A stretch of DNA of 64,000 nt, from positions 17,670 to 81,669 of the forward strand of contig CAVWCX010000028.1 in the NCBI GenBank assembly GCA_963753595.1, written 5' to 3'. Source of the stretch: Candidatus Methanoperedenaceae archaeon. GTDB lineage: Archaea > Halobacteriota > Methanosarcinia > Methanosarcinales > Methanoperedenaceae. A program made the translations under genes and the position numbers. Within the stretch, counting starts at the first letter, position 1. The number at the start of each line of letters is the position of its first letter. The notes under the pieces were generated by a model. It did no database searches, was not told where the DNA came from, and saw only the letters and a program-made list of their open reading frames with translations. Of the stretch, positions 34,290 to 46,855 are shown piece after piece.

Positions 34290-35606
34290 GGCTGTCAAAA
34301 AGTTTGGTGTTGGAGAAGAATTTATTTTTTATTGACAGATTAAAATAGAAAGATTTAAATATTATGAAAGTAGATATATATTTATGCAACTAAACATCGT
34401 ATCTACTTTCGAAAACTGTATTGCTTCAGTACAACTTAAATTATCCGATTACATTTCAAAAGTTCCCAAGATAAAAGAAGGAATTGCATCTCGATTATCA
34501 GAAAACAGATCAAGAAATATAAATAACCCCGTGGAACTATTATTTCATATAGGAAACAGATTTGAGATTCTATATCCCCATTGTCCGGAATGTAGTTCTT
34601 CAAAAGTGATAAAACAGGAATATTATCCACGCAATTTAAAATTGGCGGAATTTGGTCATCAAACAGTTTATGTGAGACGTTATTATTGCAAAACATGTGA
34701 CAAGAAATTCAGCACACCCATTGACGCTATCGTAGAAAAAGGACATCAATATGCCAGGATTTATCAAAATCACATATGTGAAAGCTTTAAGACAGGTTAT
34801 AATTCATTCAGACATTTGAAAAAGATATTTCACTCTTTCTACAATCATTCTCCTTCACATCAAACAATATACAACTGGATTTTTGAAATGAATCCAAAAT
34901 CGGAAGCAATAGAACCGAATTTATCTGGGTATTATTGCTATGACGAGCAATACTTAAAGATCGATGGGAAGCGATTTTATCGAATAAATTTGATTGATTC
35001 AATACTCAATAAGCCAGTAAAAGAGTTGATCGTCAATGATTTTCAATATGATACAGTTAAATCGTTCATTGAAAAAGCGATATCTGGCATACCAGTCCAC
35101 GCAATTACAACGGATCACAGAAGAGAATATAAAAGCATAATGGATGAACTGAAAATCAACCATCAACTTTGTATTTTTCATCTATTTAAAATGATCGGCA
35201 AAGAGATTATTCCAAAATTAAGATCTAAATTCATTTCAAACACCAATAAAATTCGATTATGCATATTATTTACTGAAATTAAGGAAATTTTCAGAACTTT
35301 CGACTTGAATATCGCTATCAATAGACTTAATGGATTGTTGGAGAAATCAAATGCAACACCAAAAATTATCCATAAATTTATACAAAAAATAGAGGATGAT
35401 TTTGAAAGACTCACTCTTTTTATGAGGGATGGGTTTGTTTCAAGAACAACGAATCCCATTGAAAACTATTATCGAACTACTATGCCTGATTCATTAAAAA
35501 GGATCTTCAAAACACCAGATGGAGCTTTAAAATATCTGGATATCAGGAAGAATTATTGGCTAAATAACATTTCAAAAAATATTTAACACCAAAAGATTTT
35601 ACACCC
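34290..35606 (+). mobile_element. Mutator-like (IS256/ISH6-related) IS, no TSD detectable
   Basis: Imperfect 22-bp TIRs GGCTGTCAAAAAGTTTGGTGTT / AACACCAAAAGATTTTACACCC (17/22 match). Confidence 0.75.
34384..35586 (+). CDS. Transposase with Zn ribbon, HTH and DDE/CxxH motifs
   Basis: CPEC...CKTC, PSHQTIYNW, YDEQY, ITTDH, HQLCIFH, TTNPIENYY. Confidence 0.85.
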   Translation: MQLNIVSTFENCIASVQLKLSDYISKVPKIKEGIASRLSENRSRNINNPVELLFHIGNRFEILYPHCPECSSSKVIKQEYYPRNLKLAEFGHQTVYVRRYYCKTCDKKFSTPIDAIVEKGHQYARIYQNHICESFKTGYNSFRHLKKIFHSFYNHSPSHQTIYNWIFEMNPKSEAIEPNLSGYYCYDEQYLKIDGKRFYRINLIDSILNKPVKELIVNDFQYDTVKSFIEKAISGIPVHAITTDHRREYKSIMDELKINHQLCIFHLFKMIGKEIIPKLRSKFISNTNKIRLCILFTEIKEIFRTFDLNIAINRLNGLLEKSNATPKIIHKFIQKIEDDFERLTLFMRDGFVSRTTNPIENYYRTTMPDSLKRIFKTPDGALKYLDIRKNYWLNNISKNI

Positions 35607-35607
35607 A

Positions 35608-35653
35608 CATCCAATCAAAACATATAAATGCCATTAATGTTAACATATTAAAT
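35608..35653 (+). promoter_or_regulatory. Conserved archaeal promoter region (TATAAA, CATTAATG palindrome), duplicated at 45598-45643 on the minus strand
   Basis: CATCCAATCAA..RTATAAATGCCATTAATGT in both copies; TATA lies about 30 bp ahead of the RNA candidate. Confidence 0.55.
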
Positions 35654-35791
35654 GGAGAGTAAACCGGGTGATCATATCTAAGCCTGCGTGGTAATCTCGC
35701 AGCTCAGGATGATATAGAATACCAAACATGGGTAATGCCATGTGCGGAATAACTATGGTTCGGTACCCGCCCGGGCTTGAATCCCTTTTTT
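35654..35791 (+). ncRNA. Candidate structured RNA, family A, copy 1 (ends in T6)
   Basis: Homologous to 45467-45597 (-) with compensatory base-pair changes; no conserved ORF. Confidence 0.55.
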
Positions 35792-35929
35792 GGTGCGTTG
35801 TGATTTCTGTGCACGGCACAAAGGCAAATAAATAAAATATACAAATAAAATTTTTAAATTAAAGGAGAATTATATCGTTTAAAACTGAATGAATGATTAG
35901 ATAATTTTATATACTAATGACGCATTCAT

Positions 35930-36040
35930 TATAATTGTTTACTAACGTGTGAACTGCGGGGTGGGGGGCCATCCAACTTATGCATCAGTTAGATCTGGTA
36001 CATGAGAAAGGAATATTCCCTTTTACTTGAATCCCTGACG
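35930..36040 (+). ncRNA. Candidate structured leader, family B, copy 1 (partly deleted)
   Basis: Shares TTCATTATA.TTGTTT, ACGWGTGAAC, ACTTATGCATCAGTT, AGATC(C)TGG, TGAGAAMGG, ATTCC and AATCCCT, in order, with 40272-40403 (-). Confidence 0.4.
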
Positions 36041-36107
36041 GGAAAACAACACGCAAAAAAACATGGAAAAACCATAGAAACTGAATCGCAAATGGAGGAG
36101 TGAATAT

Positions 36108-36797
36108 ATGTATATATTTAGCTGGGAAAAAGTTCCAGGAAAAGATAACGGAAAACTCATAGAGTATCTGGAACAGAAATATGGTGTCGATTGGGTAAGG
36201 ACAGCAAAAATTGAAAAAATCGGTAATGACGAGATCAAAATTTTTTCTGAAAAAAACTTTCTTACATTAATGCTTAACAATCAAAAAACCAATGTAATTT
36301 TAAACATCAACAAAGTCAGAACTGATGAATTCAGGGTGGAGATCGAAAATGGTACCGTAAACATATACAAAGATACCAGCCAAAGCATCAGGAAAGGAGT
36401 AAAACTGGAAACCGGTTATCCCTATGCTGTCCTGGGCGGACTTGTGATCGCGGGCCTGATCATCGTGGCCTTTCTGGGATACTCTGGTGTCCAAAGCGCC
36501 GGAATATTCTCCCAGCGCGAGGCGTTCTTCGTGATCGGCAGCTCAATACTTATATTAACAGCCGCATCGATTTACCTTCTCTTCACGCTGCGAAACACTA
36601 TCAGCGTCCTTAAGATCCACGAGGAGGAACTGCAATCTGCGCGCGATGCGGGACAGGAAAGACGTATCACCTCGCTTGAAGGCACACGATCCGGTGCGAC
36701 CACCTCGCTTGCCCCACGCGTCTCGGCCCTTGAGCCGCAACTTGCGACCCTGGAAGCTCGCATCACTACCCTGGAAAGCGGCCGACCATCTCACTAA
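36108..36797 (+). CDS. Chimeric membrane protein: YxFSW-type N-terminal domain + 2 TM + coiled-coil tail
   Basis: N-terminus YIFSWEKVPGKDNGKLIEYL...GVDWVRTAKIEK...ENGTVNIY; GC rises sharply after about 36420; RITSLE/RVSALE/RITTLE heptads. Confidence 0.7.
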   Translation: MYIFSWEKVPGKDNGKLIEYLEQKYGVDWVRTAKIEKIGNDEIKIFSEKNFLTLMLNNQKTNVILNINKVRTDEFRVEIENGTVNIYKDTSQSIRKGVKLETGYPYAVLGGLVIAGLIIVAFLGYSGVQSAGIFSQREAFFVIGSSILILTAASIYLLFTLRNTISVLKIHEEELQSARDAGQERRITSLEGTRSGATTSLAPRVSALEPQLATLEARITTLESGRPSH

Positions 36798-36846
36798 ACG
36801 TAACCCTGGGTGTTAAAAATTTTTTTTTAAAAAATAGGAGGATATT

Positions 36847-37119
36847 TTGGCATATACACTGGAGATATTAATAATTATAATCGGAATTATATATGGCTAC
36901 ATGAAACCAGGCAAAGAAGACCGTTCGGCACTCCTCAAGAAAGGAGTGGTGATTGGAATAGTCCTTGGTGCTATAATGGTATTACTGGGATTATTTGGAG
37001 GTAGAGAAATTCTGCTGCTTGGAGGTTTAGTCGGAATGGTCGTATTTATCGAAGTTATAATCCTTGCAGTACTATTCGTTATAGGTACCTACATAGGAGA
37101 TATGCTGGAGCACAAATAG
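36847..37119 (+). CDS. Small 3-TM membrane protein (paralog of 42404-42676)
   Basis: GIIYGYMKPGKEDR motif; RBS AGGAG; TTG start. Confidence 0.85.
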   Translation: MAYTLEILIIIIGIIYGYMKPGKEDRSALLKKGVVIGIVLGAIMVLLGLFGGREILLLGGLVGMVVFIEVIILAVLFVIGTYIGDMLEHK

Positions 37120-37159
37120 GTAAAAACAGTCAGATTAATATATGAAACGGAGGAATAAT

Positions 37160-37339
37160 ATGAAAAGCAGTACACAGGACAAAATAGAAAGCAATATCCA
37201 CAAAATTAAGGGTGAGATCAAGGAAACTGCAGGGCAGCTACTCGATAATCCCAAACTGGAAGCAGAAGGAACATCAGAAAAAATTGTCGGCAAAATTCAA
37301 GAAAAGACCGGCGAGATCAAGAAGGTCTTTGGGAAATAG
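37160..37339 (+). CDS. csbD: CsbD-family general stress protein, copy 1
   Basis: DKIESNIHKIKGEIKETAGQLLDNPKLEAEG..EKIVGKIQEKTGEIK; RBS GGAGG before ATG 37160. Confidence 0.85.
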   Translation: MKSSTQDKIESNIHKIKGEIKETAGQLLDNPKLEAEGTSEKIVGKIQEKTGEIKKVFGK

Positions 37340-37357
37340 AACGCGTATAATGTGAAG

Positions 37358-37384
37358 GTGTTTGAGGCCAAAAACCTCAAATAT
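37358..37384. terminator. Hairpin between convergent csbD and PAS genes
   Basis: GTGTTTGAGG-N7-CCTCAAATAT followed by T-rich sequence; a related hairpin lies at about 42134-42156 after csbD copy 2. Confidence 0.4.
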
Positions 37385-37444
37385 TCTTTAGCTTTTTTTC
37401 TTTAAGTTTTTCCGGATTATTTATATGAATGCTGAAATAGCCAA

Positions 37445-38002
37445 TTAATTCTTCAGCGGGTTTTTCAAAGCTGACATTTCTTGTTCCATTTCTGCAACTA
37501 TCTTTTTAAGGTCAATCATACGCATTTCCCGCCCTACAAATAGCTTGTTGAAACGTTCAAGTTCAGCGTTCTTTTCTTTTAATTCAATTTCAATTCGTTT
37601 GCGTTCTGTTATATCTTCAATTGCAAGTAGAATTATTTTTTTACATTCAGCACCGCTATGGATTTCACGGGCGTTGAGCAGCATTACTTTGTGGCCAATA
37701 GTTGGAAAAACGTGTTCTACTTCGAAATCATTGAACGGTGTGTTTTCCGGAATAATTCTTTCTAGTAATTTCTTTAATTCCCGCAATCTGGAAATGTTCC
37801 ATTCCTGGTTTCCAATAGTGAATATTGAATTACCAATTGTTACTTCTGGTTTCACTTTAAAAGTATTATAAAAGTTGTCGTTAGCGAAAATTACTTTCAT
37901 TTCGGTATCAAGCACCACTAAAGATTCACGGACTGTATTTACAATATTTTCAAATTGGTTCGACCACTCTCCGAACAATCCTGCCTGTACTACATTATTC
38001 AT
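37445..38002 (-). CDS. Stand-alone PAS domain + coiled-coil protein
   Basis: NIVNTVRESLVVLD...FAN..FY..F, FPTIG.KVMLLNAR, LAIEDITERK (CheB/CheR-fusion-type PAS); no kinase or output domain. Confidence 0.85.
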   Translation of the reverse strand: MNNVVQAGLFGEWSNQFENIVNTVRESLVVLDTEMKVIFANDNFYNTFKVKPEVTIGNSIFTIGNQEWNISRLRELKKLLERIIPENTPFNDFEVEHVFPTIGHKVMLLNAREIHSGAECKKIILLAIEDITERKRIEIELKEKNAELERFNKLFVGREMRMIDLKKIVAEMEQEMSALKNPLKN

Positions 38003-38041
38003 TTATTATTCCCCGTCAATACTGGATGTGAAAGCTAAAGG

Positions 38042-38326
38042 CTATTTCTTATATATAAGAAGTGCCCCTAACATTACCCCAATTAAACCTATCAATACAA
38101 ATCCAAGCCCTCGCATAGTGAACATCGCATCAATGAATGATGCAATTCCCCAGAGGGTCAAGAAAAATCCCGTGGCTGCGAGTGAGATCGCAACTCCGGT
38201 AATGAATAACTTTTTTTTAAATTTCTCTATACCTTCTTCTATGCAATTACCAATTCCCCCGGGCCCGATAAATCCTTGAATTATCGAATTTGAAAGGCCG
38301 GACAGAAAATCAATTATTTGCCCCAC
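38042..38326 (-). CDS. Small 2-TM membrane protein (YqjE/holin-like), copy 1
   Basis: Translationally coupled to the DUF883-like gene; paralog at 42725-43012. Family call is inferred from context. Confidence 0.65.
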   Translation of the reverse strand: MGQIIDFLSGLSNSIIQGFIGPGGIGNCIEEGIEKFKKKLFITGVAISLAATGFFLTLWGIASFIDAMFTMRGLGFVLIGLIGVMLGALLIYKK

Positions 38327-38565
38327 TATCCTTTTCCCCTGCCGAGCAGGTAACCCACGAAAACCCCGCCAACGAATGCTCCTGCCACATAAGCAAGAGG
38401 GTTTTCATTTATCTTCGCTTCAGCAGATTCTTTTTGCTCCCCGACTGTTTTCCCTATTGACTTAGATAGTTCATCAAATTTTTCTTCAAATTTGGCCGTC
38501 AGATCGCTGAGTGTATTTTTTATCTCTTTTATTTCTTGTTTTACTACTTTTTCATCTTCTTGCAT
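38326..38565 (-). CDS. DUF883/ElaB/YqjD-like tail-anchored protein, copy 1
   Basis: Coiled coil then INENPLAYVAGAFVGGVFVGYLLGR. Confidence 0.75.
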   Translation of the reverse strand: MQEDEKVVKQEIKEIKNTLSDLTAKFEEKFDELSKSIGKTVGEQKESAEAKINENPLAYVAGAFVGGVFVGYLLGRGKG

Positions 38566-38648
38566 AAATTAACCTCCACAATTGAAATTATGTATTGTTT
38601 ATATATATATAGTCAGGTGGTTACCCAAATAATTTGTTAAGTAATTTT

Positions 38649-39605
38649 TCACCTTGCAGGTGGCCGCTGGGTAGTTGGAGCCGCCTCAAGCACGGTCTTT
38701 CGCTTCACTTTTTGCTGCCCGCTGAAAAACTCCATAGTAACTTTGTCGCCCACTTCGTGTTTGCCAAGGACTTTGATCAGATCCCTGACATTATTGATAT
38801 CAATATCATCCATGCGGATAAGGATATCCGCAACTTCGATGCCTGATTTGTCTGCTTCGCTTCCAGGTATAACATTGGTCACCACAACCCCTTTTTCGGT
38901 TGGAAGATCATAGTATGCCACAAGCTTCGGGTTGACATCAACAGCATTGATGCTGATCCAGGGTCTTACGATTTTACCGTTTTTTATCAGCTGCTCGGCT
39001 GCCCACATGGCTGCCTGTATCGGGATGGAAAAACCAATGCCCTGTGCAAAAGGTATAATGGCGCTGTTAATCCCTATCACCACACCGCTGCTGTTTATCA
39101 ATGGGCCCCCGCTGTTGCCCGGATTGATGGCTGCATCTGTCTGTATCAATCCTTCCATGAACGTCACTTCAGTCTGGATAGAGCGGTTCAATGCGCTTAT
39201 AACACCTGCCGTTACAGTCGGGCCGCCCACAAGGCCCAGGGGACTGCCTATAGCTATAGCCATTTGACCTATTTTTATAGTATCATTACTGGCGAGCTCA
39301 GGCACAGGCAAATTGCTGGCTTTGATCTTAAGAACCGCAATATCCAGAATTGAATCCAGGCCACGAACCTCCCCCGGGAATATCCTCCCATCTTCCAGTG
39401 CCACTTTTATCTCACTGGAACCAAGCACTACGTGAGCATTTGTGAGAATAAAACCGTCTTTTGTAATGATAAAACCCGAGCCTACACCAGGAATTGGATG
39501 GACGTTCAGGTAAGCATCTTTCATCAGCTTTACTTCGCTTATGTTCACAACGCTTGGTATTACCTTTTCTACAGCTCCTACAACTGTATCGTCAAAATTT
39601 GCCAT
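38649..39605 (-). CDS. htrA: HtrA/DegP-family serine protease with PDZ domain, no signal peptide
   Basis: GSGFII, TNAHV, DIAVLK, IQTDAAINPGNSGGPL, PDZ. Confidence 0.93.
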   Translation of the reverse strand: MANFDDTVVGAVEKVIPSVVNISEVKLMKDAYLNVHPIPGVGSGFIITKDGFILTNAHVVLGSSEIKVALEDGRIFPGEVRGLDSILDIAVLKIKASNLPVPELASNDTIKIGQMAIAIGSPLGLVGGPTVTAGVISALNRSIQTEVTFMEGLIQTDAAINPGNSGGPLINSSGVVIGINSAIIPFAQGIGFSIPIQAAMWAAEQLIKNGKIVRPWISINAVDVNPKLVAYYDLPTEKGVVVTNVIPGSEADKSGIEVADILIRMDDIDINNVRDLIKVLGKHEVGDKVTMEFFSGQQKVKRKTVLEAAPTTQRPPAR

Positions 39606-39686
39606 ATTATCATCACTCCTCGAACTTTTATATCTACAATATCAATCTTTGCTATTCAGTTCCTACTTATTCATCTTCTACACTGG

Positions 39687-39833
39687 TTAAAAAGGTTTTC
39701 GTCCCTGGATGATTCTTAATAGGATCATAATTATAGCAATGACCAGCAATATATGGATCAAGCTGCCAAGTATACCTAGCGAAAATCCCAACAGCCAGAG
39801 TATAATCAGAATTACTATTATTGTTCCGATCAT
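39687..39833 (-). CDS. lmo0937/DUF5670-like 48-aa membrane protein, copy 1 (missed by ORF track)
   Basis: MIGTIIVILIILWLLGFSLGILGSLIHILLVIAIIMILLRIIQGRKPF; RBS GAGAGG. Confidence 0.8.
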   Translation of the reverse strand: MIGTIIVILIILWLLGFSLGILGSLIHILLVIAIIMILLRIIQGRKPF

Positions 39834-39836
39834 GAT

Positions 39837-40214
39837 TTAACCTCTCACGATTACTTTTCCGTGCTGCATGGTTAGATGGTTTGTACAACTATATTCAAAT
39901 GTTCCGGCTTGATCAAATTTGTAGCTATATGTTTTACCTGATCCGATATTTCCTGAATCAAATGAGCCTGATACTGAAGTTACAGTGTGTGGAACATTAT
40001 CATCATTAACCCAGGTCACGGTTGTCCCCATCGGGACTTCTGCAATATCGGGAACGAAATTATTGTTTTTAATATTTATCTGTTGTTCAGTGGATATCTG
40101 TGCCGGCGTTGTTGCAAGTGGTGTTGGTTCCGCGGGTCTGGTCGTAGTTGTTGTGGTACACCCGCTTATTAATACAAATATCACTAACAATCCAATAATC
40201 AATATCTTTTTCAT
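39837..40214 (-). CDS. Cupredoxin (plastocyanin/halocyanin-like) lipoprotein
   Basis: LISGC lipobox, GTTVTWVN.D..PHTV, YSCTNHLTM type-1 copper ligands. Start MKKIL at 40214. Confidence 0.88.
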   Translation of the reverse strand: MKKILIIGLLVIFVLISGCTTTTTTRPAEPTPLATTPAQISTEQQINIKNNNFVPDIAEVPMGTTVTWVNDDNVPHTVTSVSGSFDSGNIGSGKTYSYKFDQAGTFEYSCTNHLTMQHGKVIVRG

Positions 40215-40271
40215 ATAAACCTCCGTCTCAATATGAGATTTCTGTAATTTTCCCATTTTTCCTTATTTTCA

Positions 40272-40403
40272 GTAAGGGATTATTTTAAGTGGAATGTGCC
40301 GTTCTCAAGCGCCAGGATCTTACAGAATCAGGAAACTGATGCATAAGTCAGGCACGGTAAATTCCCACGCCCTTCGTTCACTCGTGGCAAACAATATAAT
40401 GAA
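40272..40403 (-). ncRNA. Candidate structured leader, family B, copy 2 (upstream of cupredoxin)
   Basis: Nested pairings AAGGG/CCCTT, GTGG(G)AAT/ATTCCAC, CCGT/ACGG, GTGCC/GGCGC, ATCAG/CTGAT; homologous to 35930-36040. Confidence 0.45.
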
Positions 40404-40887
40404 GGTTTCAAAAGTATTTAAAACTTTCCGGCCATTCATTTATTTTTAAACGATTGTAAATAATGAAACTATAGGGAGAGATTTGATGTGCTAATTTTTG
40501 AAGTGTATGGTACGGATAGATAATGTCATTTGAACGTTAATTCCAGAGCCGGATACACAACTGTATCCAGCATTTTAAGGGTTCGAAAATAACTGTCATT
40601 TAAGTTACATTTAAAAGTTTTTATGATGATAAGTATAATAATAACTATCATCAGTTAAAACAATTGTATAGAGTGTGAAAGTATTTATAGTATTAAATAT
40701 CTAATAGATAGAAATCAATAAACGTTTATTTAGATTTGTTGATAGGGGGATCTGTTAATTAATTTGGGGTTAGCGACCAAAAAATCCTAGGGAGTAAAAT
40801 ATGAAATATCAATATTTGGAAAAAGTTAAGATATGGGTATATATTGCAGCTATAGCAGCAATTATATCTGATACCGTTAGTAAAAAT

Positions 40888-41733
40888 ATGAAAGGAAGTG
40901 CCCGGCACTTGAGTCTTCTGGCAATCCTGGGAGTCGTCGCGCTTGTTTGCGGCGTCTCCCCGGCACTTGCCGCGACGACGGTGAATCTTGGAACAGCCGA
41001 TAGTTTCGCAGTTCTGGCTGGCTCGGGGATAACCAATACTGGTCCAACGACGATTACCGGGGATGTCGGGACGTTTCCGACTCCGGCTGAGACCGGCTTT
41101 GTCTACATTACGTTGCACGGGGCAAACCACGTGGATGACGCTGTTACGCAATCGGCCAAGAACGATCTGACCTCGGCTTATAACAATGTCGCTGGACAAA
41201 CACCGGTTTCCAGGGTAAATACGGAACTCGGCACTACAACCAGATTCGCAGGTATCTACGACTCTGCGGACGGTACATTTGGGATAACAGGGACTCTGAC
41301 GCTCGACGCCCAGGGCGACCCCAGCGCAGTCTTTATCTTCAAGACCGACTCCACACTTATTACGGCAGGGGCGAGTAATGTAAATCTCATAAATGGCGCT
41401 CAAGCCTGCAATGTCTTTTGGAAAGTAGGCAGTTCTGCAACACTCGGAACGAACTCCCGTTTCAAAGGAAATATCCTGGCATTGACATCAATAACTCTGA
41501 CGACCGGAGCAAACATATCCGGCAGAGCCCTGGCGCGTAATGGTGCAGTGACGATGGATACCAACACGATCACCGCCTCCACATGCCAAGCTACCGGAAC
41601 ACCTGCTGGAACACCTACTGGAACACCTGTCGGAACACCCTCTGCAACACCGATTCCGGAATTTCCGACAATTTCATTGGCTATTGCTTCAGTGATCGGT
41701 CTGATGTTCCTATTCCAGAGAAAGGGCAAATAA
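40888..41733 (+). CDS. DUF3494 ice-binding-family protein with PEF-CTERM anchor
   Basis: LGTADSFAVLAGSGITNTG, LTLDAQGDP.AVFIFK, NVFWKVGSSATLG, GRALARNGAVTMDTN; C-terminal PIPEFPT + TM + RKGK. Confidence 0.9.
   Translation: MKGSARHLSLLAILGVVALVCGVSPALAATTVNLGTADSFAVLAGSGITNTGPTTITGDVGTFPTPAETGFVYITLHGANHVDDAVTQSAKNDLTSAYNNVAGQTPVSRVNTELGTTTRFAGIYDSADGTFGITGTLTLDAQGDPSAVFIFKTDSTLITAGASNVNLINGAQACNVFWKVGSSATLGTNSRFKGNILALTSITLTTGANISGRALARNGAVTMDTNTITASTCQATGTPAGTPTGTPVGTPSATPIPEFPTISLAIASVIGLMFLFQRKGK
41596..41643 (+). repeat. 4 x 12-bp tandem repeat (GGAACACCYNNN) encoding a GTPx linker
   Basis: Seen directly. Confidence 0.85.
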
Positions 41734-41887
41734 TTTAATCTGGCCCTTTATTTTCTTTTTTTTCCCATAGTAAATTTGTCACCCACTTTGTGTTCGTTGA
41801 GGACTTTGATCAGATTTGACGACCTTTTTATGTTTGAAGAATAATCTTACACGCATTATGATACCTGGAAGTAAGCAATGTGATGAT

Positions 41888-42088
41888 ATGATAGCTCGCA
41901 AGAATGAGACAAAACCTCCTTTTAGGCCAGATTCAGAATCGGAAAAGCTGGTACGATGTAACCATTGTGGTGAAACTTTTAAGGAAAAAGAAATAAAGTG
42001 GGATACAATACGGGAGAAGTGGGTCTGCAAAAATCATCCAAAGTGCGATGGCTCAGTGTTGAATTTAGATATTCGTCATGTTGATTAG
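41888..42088 (+). CDS. Small zinc-finger-like protein
   Basis: CNHCG...WVCKNHPKCDG. Confidence 0.55.
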   Translation: MIARKNETKPPFRPDSESEKLVRCNHCGETFKEKEIKWDTIREKWVCKNHPKCDGSVLNLDIRHVD

Positions 42089-42185
42089 ATCTTAAAAAAC
42101 AGGTGTTCGATACAGAAAATTATAAAAAAAAAATGTTTGAGGCTGCGAGCCTCAAGGGAGTGCAGACGCATGATACGCTGCTCTC

Positions 42186-42365
42186 CTACTTCCCAAAGAC
42201 CTTCTTAATCTGGCCGACCTTTTCTTGTATTTTACCTTCTATTTTCTCGCTTTTACCTTCTATTTCCAGATCGGTATTCTTGGTGATTTTCCCGGCGGCT
42301 TCCTTAATCCCACCCTTCACTTTGTGTATATTGCTTTCAATCTTGTCTTGTGTACTGCTTTTCAT
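42186..42365 (-). CDS. csbD: CsbD-family protein, copy 2 (missed by ORF track)
   Basis: MKSSTQDKIESNIHKVKGGIKEAAGKITKNTDLEIEGKSEKIEGKIQEKVGQIKKVFGK. Confidence 0.85.
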   Translation of the reverse strand: MKSSTQDKIESNIHKVKGGIKEAAGKITKNTDLEIEGKSEKIEGKIQEKVGQIKKVFGK

Positions 42366-42403
42366 ATTATTCCTCCGTTTATTTTTAATCTGAATATTCG
42401 TAT

Positions 42404-42676
42404 TTATTTTCGCTCCAGCATATCTCCGATATATGTCCCAATAATAAATAGTACTGCAAGGATTATAACTTCGATAAATATGCCCACTCCGGCTAAACCA
42501 CCAAGCATCAACATCGCTCCACCTCCTAATAACCCCAGTAATACCATTATAGCACCAAGGACTATTCCAATCACTACTCCTTTTTTGAGTAGTGCCCAGC
42601 GGTCTTCCTTGCCTGGTTTCATGTAGCCATATATAATTCCGATTATAATTATCAATATTTCCAATGTATATGCCAT
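42404..42676 (-). CDS. Small 3-TM membrane protein, copy 2
   Basis: Highly similar to 36847-37119. Confidence 0.85.
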   Translation of the reverse strand: MAYTLEILIIIIGIIYGYMKPGKEDRWALLKKGVVIGIVLGAIMVLLGLLGGGAMLMLGGLAGVGIFIEVIILAVLFIIGTYIGDMLERK

Positions 42677-42724
42677 AATATCTCCCTAATTTTTAAATTT
42701 AATATATTTCTGTTGCAGCCAGCT

Positions 42725-43012
42725 CTATTTCTTATATACAAGAACCCCGGTCAGAACTCCAATTAAACCTATCAATACAAATCCAAGCCCCTGCATAGCG
42801 AACATCACATCAATGGCAGATGCAATTCCCCAGAATATCAAGAAAAACCCGGTGCCAGCGATTGAGATCGCAATCCCTGTAATAAATATTTTTTTTCTGG
42901 ATTTCTCTATCCCTTTTTCTATGGAATTGCCAATTACATCATGGGCTTCGCTAAAACCCTGGATTATCGAATTTGAAAGGCCGGAAAGAAAATCTATTAT
43001 ATTTTGCTGCAC
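42725..43012 (-). CDS. YqjE/holin-like 2-TM protein, copy 2
   Basis: Paralog of 38042-38326. Confidence 0.65.
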   Translation of the reverse strand: MQQNIIDFLSGLSNSIIQGFSEAHDVIGNSIEKGIEKSRKKIFITGIAISIAGTGFFLIFWGIASAIDVMFAMQGLGFVLIGLIGVLTGVLVYKK

Positions 43013-43251
43013 TAGCCTTTTCCCCTACCGAGCAGGTAACCCACGAAAACCCCGCCAACGAATGCTCCTGCCACATAAGCAAGAGGGTTTTCATTTATCT
43101 TCGCTTCAGCAGATTCTTTTTGCTCCCCGACTGTTTTCCCTATTGATTTAGATAGTTCATCAAATTTTGCTTCAAATTTGGCCGTCAGGTCGCTGAGTGA
43201 ATGTTTTATCTCTTTTATTTCTTGTTTTACTACTTTTTCATCTTCTTGCAT
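43012..43251 (-). CDS. DUF883/ElaB-like protein, copy 2
   Basis: Three amino-acid differences from 38326-38565. Confidence 0.75.
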   Translation of the reverse strand: MQEDEKVVKQEIKEIKHSLSDLTAKFEAKFDELSKSIGKTVGEQKESAEAKINENPLAYVAGAFVGGVFVGYLLGRGKG

Positions 43252-43281
43252 AAATTAACCTCCACAATGGAAATTGATTGA

Positions 43282-43434
43282 CTATAACGGTTTGCGTCCC
43301 TGGATGATTCTTACCAGTATCACGATAATAGCAACCACCAGCAATATATGGATTAAGCCGCCAAGTAAACCGAGCCCAAATCCCAACAGCCAGAGTATCA
43401 ACAAAATTACAACTATTGTCCAGAATAGATCCAT
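43282..43434 (-). CDS. lmo0937/DUF5670-like 50-aa membrane protein, copy 2 (missed by ORF track)
   Basis: MDLFWTIVVILLILWLLGFGLGLLGGLIHILLVVAIIVILVRIIQGRKPL; RBS GAGGAGG. Confidence 0.8.
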   Translation of the reverse strand: MDLFWTIVVILLILWLLGFGLGLLGGLIHILLVVAIIVILVRIIQGRKPL

Positions 43435-43529
43435 ACAACTAACCTCCTCAAGTATGATATTTGTACTAAATGCATATAATCTTTTCGTTTATTTTTGGCT
43501 TTCAGTCATTTAAAATTAGACATTGCTTA

Positions 43530-43721
43530 TTAATCTTTTTCTGTGAGTACGTCCACACGGTTGTGAAGTTCAGCCATGTTTTCTGCAAGGTTTTTTATTA
43601 ATTCAGCACATCTGTCAGCAAAACTTGCAGCCTGTTTAGCATCTATATCATCTTTTGAATCTGCAATATCTTTCATCAAAAGGTTAGCCATTTCCACAAT
43701 TTCTTCCGGATATACAACCAT
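43530..43721 (-). CDS. Small helical hypothetical protein downstream of thermosome
   Basis: 63 aa, RBS GGGAGG, co-oriented 30 bp after the thermosome stop. Confidence 0.65.
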   Translation of the reverse strand: MVVYPEEIVEMANLLMKDIADSKDDIDAKQAASFADRCAELIKNLAENMAELHNRVDVLTEKD

Positions 43722-43751
43722 TTTAACACTTCCTCCCTTCTTATAAAATGC

Positions 43752-45389
43752 TTAACCCATTCCTTCCATTCCACCCATGCCACCGGGTGGCATGCCTCCT
43801 GCAGGCGCAGCTTTGCTTGAAAGCACATCATCAATCCTCAGGATCATGGTGGCTGCCTCCGTAGCAGAACTGATAGCCTGTGTCTTTACTCTTAGGGGCT
43901 CAACCACACCTTCTTTCCACATGTCCACAACTTTTCCAGTGAACACATTGAGACCGGCAGTATTGTTTCCCTTCTCATGCTGGCTTCGCATCTCCACAAG
44001 CATATCAATGGGGTCAAGACCGGCATTTTCAGCCAGAGTCCTTGGGATGATTTCAAGCGCCTCGGCAAATTTTGCGACTGCCAGCTGTTCCCTGCCTATT
44101 AATGTGGCTGAGTATTCTCGCAGGCGCAGAGCCAGTTCAACTTCAGGTGAGCCGCCTCCAGCTACAAGTGCCTCATCCTCGATTGCAACTCCAACCACAC
44201 GCAATGCATCATGAAGCGCACGCTCGGCTTCATCCACGACATGCTCGGTCCCTCCTCGAAGAATAATGGAGACTGCCTTGGGGTTGTGGCATCCGGTAAC
44301 ATATGTCATTGCCTCCTCACCGATCTTTTTCTCCTCTACAAGATCCGCTTTTCCAAGATCAGATTCGCTGATTTCCTTTAGACCTGTCAGTATCTTTGCA
44401 CCGGTTGCGCGTGCCAGTTTTTCCATGTCGCTTTTCTTTACGCGCCTTGCTGCGAAAATGCCTGCTTTTGCAAGATAATGCTGTGCAAGGTCATCTATTC
44501 CCTTCTCAACGAAGACCACATTTGCACCGCTTTTAATCACTTTTTTGACCATGTCATGCAACATCTGTTCTTCCTGGTCAAGGAATAACTGGAGCTGGTC
44601 GGGTGATTTTATTGATATCTCGGATTTCACTTCTGTCTTTTTGATCTCGAGGGCTTCATTGAGCAGAAGTATCCTGGCATCATGGACATTCTTTGGCATG
44701 TTGGTATGGGCTCTTTCCTTATCGATTACCATGCCTTCGATCAGCTCTGATGCTTCTACACTGCCGCCCACTTTCTTCTCAACTTTGATCTCTTCAATAT
44801 CTGCTTTATATTTGCCATTCTCTTCATCAACCACCGCTAATATGGCATTTACAGCAAGGCTGGCGAAAACATCCTTGGAAGCTTCGGCTCCTTTTCCGGT
44901 AATCGCTGTCACAGCGATTTTCAATAATAAATCCTTATCTTCCAGAGTCACTGTTTTTGCAAGGGTCTTAAGGATCTCTTTTGCTTTTATCGATGCAAGC
45001 CTGTATCCGCTTGCGATGACTGTGGGATGAACACCCAGCTCTAATAGATCTTGCGCATTCTTCAGGAATTCACCTGCAAGCACTGCTGCCGTTGTTGTGC
45101 CATCTCCTACCTCATCATCCTGGGTCTTTGCGACTTCCACGATCATCTTGGCTGCCGGATGCTCGATATCCATTGCCTGGAGAATGGTCGCACCATCATT
45201 GGTGATTACGATATCGCCCAGCGAGTCCACGAGCATTTTATCCATACCCTTTGGTCCCAGGGTCGTCCTGACCGCCGCTGCTACCGCCATGGCAGCCATG
45301 ATATTGTTATGCTGCGCTTCTTTTCCTTTTGTTCTTTGACTGCCTTCTCTCAGAATATAGATTGGCTGTCCTGATAATTGTCCTGCCAT
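43752..45389 (-). CDS. ths: Thermosome subunit (group II chaperonin)
   Basis: [28 protein letters not shown] tail. Start MAGQLSGQP at 45389 after RBS GGAGG. Confidence 0.97.
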
Positions 45390-45466
45390 AACTAACCTCC
45401 ATTTCGATCTGGTCTTCAACCTTCGAAGCATTAAAATCGAAAAGCCCTGGATACTTGAAAGGGATT

Positions 45467-45597
45467 CAAGCACGAGCGGGAACCATATCCATAGTTTTTC
45501 CGCACATGGCATTACCCATGATTGGCATTTCTATATCATCCTGAACTTACGAGATTACCACGCAGGTTTAGAAAATGATCACTCGTTTTACTCTCCC
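45467..45597 (-). ncRNA. Candidate structured RNA, family A, copy 2 (5' leader of thermosome)
   Basis: Homolog of 35654-35791 with covariation; ends about 78 nt before the thermosome ATG. Confidence 0.55.
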
Positions 45598-45736
45598 ATT
45601 TATATGTATGACATTAATGGCATTTATACATGTTGATTGGATGCTGTTGCCACTGTGAGGTCGCTTTGAGCTTTCAAGGTGGCATTCTGGAGCCAACCTG
45701 CTTCTGTGTTTCACAGGAAAATGAAATTCTGATAGA

Positions 45737-46855
45737 TCAGAACAATCCAATAATAGGTTTAATTATTTCCCATAAAATCATGAGAACTATTGCAACCTCA
45801 AGCCAGAGGGCCAATTGCTCGGCGGAAAGTTGCCTTGCTGTTGAGTAGAGATCCTGGAGAGAATCGATCTTTTCCTGCACCAATTTTCCATAGTCCATTA
45901 CTTTGAGCGTGTCCAGCATATTCTGATAAAAAGACTGGTAATACCAATCAGTTGTAATTTTGTGAGGATTCATCAGGTCTTTAATATCATCAAGGATCAC
46001 AAGCCCGATCTCACTCACCATAAATAATGATTTTTCAAGTTTTCTTGGCGCCTGTGTTATGAAATAGTATCTTGAGCTGTTAAGGCTTTTTAGAGCTTCG
46101 AAAGCGTTAGATATTTCAAGATCGATCTCCCTGTCATATATCTGGAACAAAAGAAAAAGTGATATGGAAAGTTCCAGTAATTCACGCAGTTCGTTGATGT
46201 AACCATCGCAACCAATAACAAAAGCCCCCTCGGTCGTAGCAAGAAACAGGTCTTCATCGTAATATGAGAGATCATTTGCGATCTTTTCCATGATCTCCTT
46301 GCTGTGCAGCGCACGGCTGGAAGTCTCTCCTGAAAGGAAACGTGTGATTACCTCCCCATATTGCTCTCGCAGGCTTTTCTGGTCGAGTTGGGGCGTAAAA
46401 TCTTTAATTTTAAGAAATGTGAATTTTTTGATATCCGGATGATATTCGACAGTCTTTATCGGATTGATTTTCTCACGTACTTCTTTTATCCTTTTATTTA
46501 CATATGACTGGTAGTCAAGTCCTTCCACGATAATGGTGTTTGAATGAAGAGCTGTCTGGATATCGTGCAAAGATATCTTATCCCGTATCTCGATTTCTGT
46601 CCTCAGTATTGATACGCCTGCGGCAAAAATATCGGTATACATGTCAGTATTGCAGGTAATTTTTTCACGGTCAGAGGCAATAACAGTCATGCCCCGGGCT
46701 TTTTCAATTTCAATCGGTTTATTCCATCTTTGCGTAATTACTTCTGAACCGATCAACGCCTTTATCTGGGTTTTATCCAGTTCACCACCATGCCCGAAAG
46801 CCGCAAGGATCGTGAGCCTGCCATTTTGAATTGTGAAATCGCTGGTCGTATCCAT
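45737..46855 (-). CDS. Hypothetical protein, RMD1/DUF155-like with C-terminal TM
   Basis: SYYDEDL, YDREID, DWYY, LEVAIVLMILWEI pattern. Family call is tentative. Confidence 0.6.
   Translation of the reverse strand: MDTTSDFTIQNGRLTILAAFGHGGELDKTQIKALIGSEVITQRWNKPIEIEKARGMTVIASDREKITCNTDMYTDIFAAGVSILRTEIEIRDKISLHDIQTALHSNTIIVEGLDYQSYVNKRIKEVREKINPIKTVEYHPDIKKFTFLKIKDFTPQLDQKSLREQYGEVITRFLSGETSSRALHSKEIMEKIANDLSYYDEDLFLATTEGAFVIGCDGYINELRELLELSISLFLLFQIYDREIDLEISNAFEALKSLNSSRYYFITQAPRKLEKSLFMVSEIGLVILDDIKDLMNPHKITTDWYYQSFYQNMLDTLKVMDYGKLVQEKIDSLQDLYSTARQLSAEQLALWLEVAIVLMILWEIIKPIIGLF

Follow-up and report, generated by a model that had tools for sequence, protein, structure and literature searches.

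What is the element of about 140 nt that stands twice in a stretch of 64,000 nt from a Candidatus Methanoperedenaceae archaeon (contig CAVWCX010000028.1, positions 17,670 to 81,669; the whole of this stretch is called the window below), once ahead of a gene for a subunit of the thermosome, the group II chaperonin, and once with no gene directly behind it? The original prediction, made from the letters alone, was of an unannotated structured RNA with compensatory base-pair changes that was not recognised as a known family. We find that the element is a new RNA family, restricted to the lineage of the Methanoperedenaceae, with a well-supported fold, and we have very little doubt that it is a functional structured RNA.

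The two copies, each a promoter followed by the RNA, lie at 35608-35791 (+) and 45455-45643 (-) and are 86% identical over an alignment of about 181 nt, from CATCCAATCAA to the 3' AAUCCC. A search of the whole 2.89-Mb genome gives these two matches only (E 3e-92 and 1.7e-52), the remaining 11 rows having E of at least 0.46, and alignment and genome search thus agree on two diverged copies at the places first proposed. Single-base insertions and deletions between the copies exclude a shared open reading frame (ORF), as had also been claimed. The parts of the two copies are as follows, with P0 to P4 for the helices of the fold.

35608-35651 (+): promoter of copy 1, with a purine-rich stretch like a transcription factor B recognition element (BRE) and a TATA box at about 35615-35629, conserved with copy 2 and across the family.
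35652-35791 (+): RNA copy 1, from covariance model R1 (143.4 bits), the minimum-energy fold and pair counts.
35654-35656 with 35782-35784 (+): P0 of copy 1.
35657-35659 with 35776-35778 (+): P0' of copy 1.
35664-35670 with 35768-35774 (+): P1 of copy 1.
35671-35713 (+): P2 of copy 1.
35714-35756 (+): P3 of copy 1.
35757-35767 (+): P4 of copy 1.
35786-35791 (+): U6 at the end of copy 1.
35792-35824 (+): remnant of a 3' extension, with a GUGAUUU block and a short inverted repeat; in other copies this extension connects RNA and downstream gene.
45599-45643 (-): promoter of copy 2, TATA box at about 45623-45630.
45455-45598 (-): RNA copy 2 (R1, 155.8 bits), with the architecture of copy 1, two compensated A-U pairs in P1 and a U tract of just 3 (45458-45460).
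45390-45454 (-): conserved extension and linker between copy 2 and the thermosome gene, with the Shine-Dalgarno sequence GGAGGT at 45395-45400.
43752-45389 (-): thermosome subunit gene, the accessory paralog linked to the RNA (NCBIfam thermosome models, E 5e-253; cluster names; comparison of paralogs).

As the original prediction had it, copy 1 ends in T6 with no gene directly downstream, the next ORF on the same strand being 317 nt further on, and copy 2 leads into the 5' region of the thermosome gene, whose ATG at 45389 is 66 nt from the end of the RNA.

The model R1 was built from 46 distinct copies and searched in 151 genomes sampled from the order. It finds 51 full copies in 32 of these genomes, nearly all of them Candidatus Methanoperedens, with matches in 30 of the 48 other genomes of the same family, in one of 20 from a second family and in none of the 82 from the other four. 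The BLAST search across the Methanoperedenaceae that had been proposed as a check also recovers the family when made with copy 1: of 53 genomes 30 have matches, between one and three each, with identities of 74-93%. A pattern of the conserved 5' and 3' ends occurs in 29 of 392 genomes of the class (reversed control 0) and on 37 metagenome contigs, all full-length to R1 at 101-171 bits; the same search of viral contigs gave no match. The cluster names of the thermosome protein are likewise Candidatus Methanoperedens and Methanoperedenaceae. The single member from the second family (G066, locus L095, 1499-1660) is a distant relative, with 41 bits to R1, the same ends, closing helix and four-arm layout, its own TATA box, a T10 tract and a fold z-score of -3.5, and it lies upstream of a gene for an HdrC-like 4Fe-4S ferredoxin. 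BLAST with this sequence in 20 genomes of its family found only itself and one chance match of 25 nt. The family may be wider than R1 can detect.

With regard to the fold, single-sequence predictions and RNAalifold agree on an RNA of about 137-145 nt with a three-part closing helix and a four-way junction without unpaired linkers, which carries the arms P2, P3 and P4. The closing helix consists of P0 (GGA/UCC), P0' (GAG/CUY), an A-rich bulge (UAAA opposite a single G) and the 7-bp P1. P2 is a long hairpin that is free in sequence, being a single hairpin in 38 of 39 distinct sequences despite differences in sequence, length and loop; P3 has two strongly conserved internal loops and an apical loop of the GGUAA type; P4 is a short hairpin. 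Conservation is strongest in the 5' GGAGAG, the bulge, the two internal loops of P3 and the strand that joins P3 to P4, and this conserved core looks like a binding site for a protein or a small ligand.

As the sequences are related, we put the weight on controls in which the pairing partners were slid, and on independent pair types. The three alignments gave the following.

MAFFT alignment, not fitted to structure (46 copies, 32 pairs): 97.7% of cells paired as against 32-50% when slid, and changes on both sides in 10 of 32 pairs as against 0-6.
Alignment to the model (51 copies, 42 pairs): 96.4% of cells paired as against 29-48% when slid, and changes on both sides in 23 of 42 pairs as against 4-11.
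Metagenome copies (37 copies, 42 pairs): 95.8% of cells paired as against 28-51% when slid, and changes on both sides in 16 of 42 pairs as against 4-8.

Covariation is far above the slid controls in all three, none of 500 shuffles attains the observed pairing values, and the compensatory changes claimed for the two copies hold for the family. In P1, whose strands are about 105 nt apart, compensated changes occur at three positions. The change of the closing stem from CCGGGUG/CGCCCGG to ACGAGUG/CGCUCGU, which had been read from the two window copies, involves two swaps that both recur in compensated form elsewhere (among 50 distinct copies C-G becomes U-A or A-U in 7, and G-C becomes A-U in 2). 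The apical stem of P3 also changes in sequence and keeps its complementarity. P0 and two C-G pairs of P3 are invariant; the 5' GGA can pair with the 3' UCC in every copy, and this pairing never varies. The inner stem that had been proposed, AAC..GUU becoming AUC..GAU, is not supported: the change of GUU to GAU is compensated within P4 (GGU/ACC to GGA/UCC), and most members of the family have A at the first and A at the second site of the proposed stem. The two hairpins with the same loop word GGUAAU survive in part, in that the loop of P3 is conserved, with GGU invariant, but that of P2 varies and the word is found twice in just 24 of 81 distinct copies; as the P2 loop is not conserved, the suggestion that twin loops titrate a protein is not supported. 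Two possible coding functions were also rejected. A leader peptide in P2 (GUG-Ile-Ile-Ile-stop) does not have a conserved start, since the G of GUG is A in 9 of 50 copies, where it is paired with U, and the antisense ORFs that cluster over the RNA (C1, 19 loci) reflect only the conservation of the RNA and are no gene.

The covariation also bears on whether an RNA is involved at all. The element might be conserved as DNA only, as tandem promoters and operator palindromes of a heat-shock regulator, and in favour of this it contains a promoter-like core, discussed below, together with palindromes (the apical stem of P3 and a repeat in the 3' extension) where archaeal repressors often bind, the repeat in the extension being without covariation of the RNA type. 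However protein operators keep sequence and not complementarity, while here P1 is compensated at three positions across some 105 nt, and the P2 hairpin and the complementarity of the P3 apical stem are kept despite sequence change. We consider conservation at the level of DNA alone very improbable.

A further rival view is that the element is a dispersed repeat of mobile origin, such as the end of an insertion sequence (IS), a miniature inverted-repeat transposable element or a tRNA-derived unit like a short interspersed nuclear element. There are one to three copies per genome at different loci, and copy 1 abuts the following ORF.

34384-35586 (+): transposase-like ORF of 400 residues, with weak ISH6, IS6 and DDE matches, all under the curated cut-offs; given for context only.

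This ORF ends 22 nt before the copy 1 repeat and shows no relation to the ORF that lies ahead of copy 2; it may account for the position of copy 1 away from a thermosome gene. However a transposase-like neighbour is present at copy 1 only, there are no copies on viral contigs, and around copy 1 there are no terminal inverted repeats or target duplications but only weak AT-rich matches, all of which speaks against an IS end. The cloverleaf-like fold, with a 3' GGGCUYGAAUCC that we took to resemble a T arm, could have pointed to a tRNA. On alignment the resemblance is rejected, as the equivalent of A58 varies between A and U (GAAUCC or GUAUCC) and the stem does not keep its 3' strand, and ARAGORN finds no tRNA gene in 35000-46500. 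We give a mobile origin hardly any credence. On the other side of copy 1, the ORF that begins 317 nt past it (36108-36797, +) has 229 residues and no family match, and is covered by RNA-library contigs at a mean word depth of 342-377.

The claim that no known family is involved was to be checked against Rfam, and it stands at every threshold tried. Rfam 15 has no match in the 64-kb window at the gathering threshold; at E <= 10 over 35400-36000 there is only noise (8-18 bits, E 1.4-9), and at E <= 1 five loci that represent all subtypes give none. A junction of four arms without linkers and conserved internal loops in two arms are features shared with the NiCo riboswitch and with the hairpin and twister-sister ribozymes, but unlike the four-way-junction RNAs of Rfam our RNA matches none of the models in these searches, and a self-cleaving ribozyme of the hairpin or twister-sister type finds no support for the same reason. 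The Y RNAs of the bacterial rsr-yrlA-rtcBA locus are also of about 100-150 nt, with paired ends and a multi-arm body, and some of our copies adjoin rtcB and archease genes. We do not think that the RNA is a Y RNA bound by Ro60, as the Ro60/TROVE domain (PF05731) is found in 0 of 53 genomes of the family (controls positive in 2 of 14) and the mimicry of a T arm fails. Searches of the literature for non-coding RNAs, riboswitches or small RNAs in Methanoperedens, and for thermosome RNA thermometers in archaea, found nothing on such an RNA. An RNA thermometer, one of the possibilities in the original prediction, would have its likeness to ROSE and fourU elements in the position ahead of a heat-shock gene. 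However our RNA is a four-way junction of 140 nt with conserved loops, and the fold stops short of the start codon by 66-76 nt, with the Shine-Dalgarno sequence GGAGGT beyond it, so that a thermometer of the usual kind is excluded by geometry.

A purine-rich BRE (CCRAAA) is kept in all subtypes, as is a box of the TTTATAAA type roughly 25 nt ahead of the GGAGAG. For copy 1 we predict a transcription start at about 35650-35654, from the spacing of 23 nt between TATA box and start at a leaderless DnaJ gene that is described below. That P1 and P2 covary requires a transcript from this upstream promoter. RNA-library contigs (one RNA run, share 0.13) cover the element, with a depth of 22.8 at 35717 and of 317.6 at 35758, but this is weak evidence, as the contigs come in part from relatives and show neither starts, ends nor strand; parts without cover are uninformative, and transcription is not proven by them.

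At the other end, the 3' strand of P0 runs straight into a run of T in all copies. The length of this run differs between subtypes. In 47 of 92 copies examined the RNA is followed by a conserved 3' extension (a GCAUCCAGRGCUUUGUGAUUUU-like block), and among these 47 most have a T-run of 4 (33 copies), while 12 have one of 3 and the other 2 one of 5. At least five T are present in 9 of 10 copies linked to nikR and in 5 of 6 linked to purE, the tracts there being mostly U5-U10. The window copies are of the extension class with its U3-U4 tract, and copy 1 has regained a U6. A pairing of the 3' strand of P1 with the downstream CCAGRGC block, checked by eye on the alignment, was rejected because variants fail to keep it.

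The gene neighbourhoods fall in with this division. A thermosome ATG lies 66-76 nt after the RNA at 13 of 50 genome loci, and a thermosome gene is downstream at 9 of 37 metagenome loci. One of the 13 is a remnant of 27 residues: at L034 (1638-1800, +) the RNA and its extension are followed by the first 27 thermosome codons and then by a radical-SAM gene, which is a scar of rearrangement. Another set on the same strand consists of a small treble-clef zinc-finger gene, then PCMT (protein repair) and then an ORF of 98 residues; the first gene after the RNA at the loci of the PCMT type encodes a 62-residue, RGG-rich treble-clef zinc-finger protein (Pfam zf_Tbcl_2; L048, 1788-1976, +), and in L039 (596-790, +) the same ORF has an in-frame stop inside the second Cys pair. 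Other downstream genes on the same strand encode universal stress protein (USP), P-type cation ATPase (3 loci), a KH-domain protein and an eRF1-like protein. Upstream are Hsp20 on the same strand (3 genome and 3 metagenome loci), divergent archease-RtcB, divergent nikR with a UPP synthase gene (7 genome and 3 metagenome loci, one of them in a second genus) and purE (4 genome loci and 1 metagenome locus). A gene for an ice-binding-like protein (Pfam Ice_binding, E 1e-80; L025, 336-1409, +) lies upstream of one thermosome-linked copy.

The neighbourhood of chaperone and stress genes that had been proposed thus extends across the family, with thermosome, Hsp20, USP, PCMT, RtcB/archease and nikR all found near copies, and the link to such genes, and to the accessory thermosome, is solid. 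In the purE class a convergent USP gene ends 8-24 nt after the RNA at 4 loci (L041, L060-L062), where the tracts are U5-U7, and there the RNA can be no leader. At L090 and L182 a T7 and further T-runs stand between the RNA and a prolyl-tRNA synthetase gene 61 nt away. The original prediction had left the choice between a leader and a small RNA, and each part holds for some members: the purE-linked copies stand alone and most nikR-linked ones have U5-U10, while copies of the window type have U3-U4 and run into the downstream gene. The family has free-standing and leader-like members.

The explanation that we favour, tentatively and at a little less than an even chance, is that of a small RNA of stress loci that doubles as a cassette of promoter and leader, with a stop or read-through at the U tract. 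A canonical archaeal BRE/TATA promoter would start the RNA at the conserved GGAGAG. For the purE-linked copies, with a convergent neighbour and U5-U10, the product would be a free small RNA. In the extension class the gene reached by the extension serves proteostasis, and is in most cases the accessory thermosome paralog; transcripts could end at the U tract there and give the small RNA, or read through and give an mRNA. The conserved core, made up of the junction, the P3 loops and the A-rich bulge, would bind a factor, a protein or else some small ligand, that is tied to heat or proteotoxic stress and sets this choice. The small RNA would thus be made everywhere, and at the copies with short tracts it would also be the 5' part of an mRNA. 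That long U tracts go with free-standing copies, and short tracts and an extension with a gene downstream, fits such a reading.

If the factor were a small molecule or an ion acting on the RNA as a riboswitch, the four-way junction would be its aptamer and the U tract its expression platform, in control of stress or transport genes. The junction and internal loops are indeed highly conserved beside a variable peripheral helix in an aptamer-like fold with covariation, the U tract follows the closing helix directly, and there are co-directional genes for P-type cation ATPase at the three loci above and for USP, as well as the ten nikR-adjoining copies (7 genome, 3 metagenome). However the downstream genes (thermosome, PCMT, zinc-finger, KH, eRF1-like, ATPase) have no common metabolic theme, the position is not consistently that of a 5' leader, given that free-standing copies combine a strong U tract with a convergent neighbour and that nikR-linked copies have U5-U7, the extension offers no alternative pairing in covariation with P1, and no Rfam riboswitch, NiCo included, matches. 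A riboswitch is in our view unlikely.

A stronger challenge comes from the thermosome genes themselves. The genome holds four, and the three without the RNA carry the signature cGAAA, TTWTATAG, AAYnAY, AAACA. Of 23 canonical thermosome genes in 7 genomes from two families, 22 have this signature (cGAAA..TTWTATAGAAYnAYAAACA) at a distance of 51-132 nt ahead of the ATG; among them are orthologs in four genomes without the RNA and thermosome genes of a second genus and a second family. Sites in our genome are C36:207243(+), C3:72961(-), C2:22229(+), C19:23690(-) and C24:85146(+), and other loci are L130-L144, L185-L193 and L200-L204; many of these promoters then show an inverted repeat GTACAA..TTGTAC. 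The core TATAGAA-N4-6-AAACA has 10 matches genome-wide as against about 5.6 expected, which are three thermosome genes, the GroES-GroEL operon, a DnaJ-domain gene, RNA copy 1 and four others. The DnaJ-domain gene (C24:85146-85200; L146:247-657) appears to be leaderless, in that its second ATG, a typical J-domain start, lies 23 nt after TATAG, and it is on this that we place starts 23 nt after TATAG.

The interval between the RNA and the thermosome ATG contains no canonical chaperone promoter. Genomes with a thermosome-linked RNA have an RNA-linked paralog 93-94% identical to that of the window and a further paralog at 85-89%, which has the canonical promoter at -83 to -90; in the four genomes without the RNA only the paralog at 85-89% is present. 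The RNA-linked thermosome is thus an accessory paralog that has lost the canonical promoter, which we count in favour of the use of the RNA as a leader. Two thermosome paralogs in other genomes, G038:C32:37032-38681 and G043:C120:13557-15161, have one in-frame TGA each.

The RNA itself contains a partial copy of this promoter, a point that was out of reach of the original prediction. The 3' strand of P2 and the 5' strand of P3 read GAUGAUAUAGAA(A)UACCAAACA, which is the chaperone core with one substitution and mostly one extra base. In the window the two sites are these.

35711-35728 (+): chaperone-promoter-like core of copy 1, TATAGAA, six bases and AAACA, in the P2 3' strand and P3 5' strand.
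45519-45537 (-): promoter-like core of copy 2, TATAGAA, seven bases and AATCA, a weaker match than that of copy 1.

Copy 1 has the canonical spacing, and in the purE-linked subtype the core is as in the DnaJ promoter. Among 81 distinct copies the strict pattern is present in 31 and a relaxed one in 53.

The main rival to a cassette of promoter and leader is therefore that the RNA is only a trans-acting small RNA or a component of a ribonucleoprotein, and that the downstream genes are transcribed from this inner core promoter, with a predicted start in the 3' strand of P3, some 120 nt ahead of the ATG; the gene of the RNA would then overlap the heat-shock promoter, and the upstream promoter, when active, may interfere with the inner one. 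We keep this as the main rival and not as our own explanation, being more inclined to doubt it than to accept it. It draws support from the near-constant presence of the signature ahead of canonical thermosome genes, from the fact that 5 of the 10 genome matches to the core are ahead of thermosome, GroES-GroEL and DnaJ genes with one more inside RNA copy 1, and from the cores of the family just described. Two independent natural deletions, in L038/L039 and in L050, bear on both explanations. They destroy the fold but leave upstream promoter and downstream gene in place, which we count for use as a leader, and they leave the inner core in place as well, which counts for the rival: L038/L039 have lost the sequence between a point just after the upstream TATA box and the 3' strand of P2, so that the deletion ends just upstream of the core, and L050 has lost that between the predicted inner start and the middle of the extension. 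The rise in contig depth between 35717 and 35758 is a further but weak point, and no proof of a start. There is also a precedent in haloarchaea, where heat-shock control of Haloferax cct1 and Halobacterium hsp5 is reported to lie in the core promoter and its flanks, in and right beside the TATA box (PMC2396416). Thermosome, GroES-GroEL and DnaJ genes here are marked by a signature of the same kind (CGAAA, TATA and a conserved downstream block); our element is unlike those promoters in that the partial copy is transcribed within a covarying RNA and the linked thermosome paralog has no intact one.

Against an inner promoter, the core lacks a CGAAA element as well as the first T's of the box, and with the full 32-nt matrix, made from 22 canonical sites, the window copies score below 8 as against 28-42 for the three thermosome promoters and that of GroES. 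AAACA, which is nearly invariant in canonical promoters, is present in just 4 of the 12 thermosome-linked copies, 6 having AATCA and 2 AAATG or AAATA. The motif is also kept equally well in free-standing copies, where no downstream gene needs it, and TATAG is needed for the pairing of P3a as well.

With this in hand the weak points of the favoured explanation, the small RNA that doubles as promoter and leader, can be set out together. The partial inner promoter of the chaperone type could drive the downstream gene by itself, and its core is exactly what the two natural deletions leave intact. The family and its fold, the motifs of promoter and U tract, the gene contexts and the loss of the canonical promoter in one paralog are observed; where the transcript starts and ends, whether it reads through and whether a factor binds is inferred. 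Archaeal termination is not known to depend on upstream helices. The inverted repeat of the extension was rejected as an RNA helix, with no significant covariation: it has no RNAalifold consensus, only 1 of 7 pairs is compensated, and 43 of 500 shuffles reach its pairing. With z = -1.9 and -1.5 the minimum-energy folds of the window copies have no exceptional stability. An element that acts purely in cis should have no free-standing copies, and no conserved neighbour points to a ligand or a protein partner. The RNA is dispensable, as roughly one in three complete genomes of the genus is without it.

A bacterial case of a leader that also yields free small RNAs is that of the S-adenosylmethionine riboswitches SreA and SreB of Listeria. 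Our RNA is of this type in having a folded domain at the 5' end of a transcription unit with a U tract next to it, such that the terminated product could be a small RNA and read-through would give an mRNA. It differs in being archaeal, with no known ligand, no Rfam match and several stand-alone genes, and in having chaperone and repair genes downstream and not a metabolic pathway.

A bolder reading, to which we give only a small chance, would make this the first structured RNA regulator of archaeal proteostasis, with an RNA gene that itself holds the chaperone core promoter. Making the RNA would then preclude use of the inner promoter and vice versa, or else the RNA would serve as a decoy for the factor that reads the promoter, and the U tract would be a factor-controlled attenuator for the accessory thermosome. 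If true, this would be an RNA-based switch in archaeal transcription without a described counterpart.

Very few structured regulatory RNAs are known in archaea, and the control of heat-shock genes in methanogens and methane-oxidising archaea is largely an open field. For an RNA restricted to one lineage the covariation is unusually clear; promoter and end signal of the family are defined, and it occurs in nature both as a leader and standing alone. This makes it possible to test whether RNA structure decides between termination and read-through, how proteotoxic stress is sensed, and how a functional RNA can have a promoter built into it. Methanoperedens is central to methane oxidation that depends on nitrate or metals, so a stress regulator there is also of ecological interest; we regard the RNA as a promising candidate for such a regulator in the stress response of archaea.

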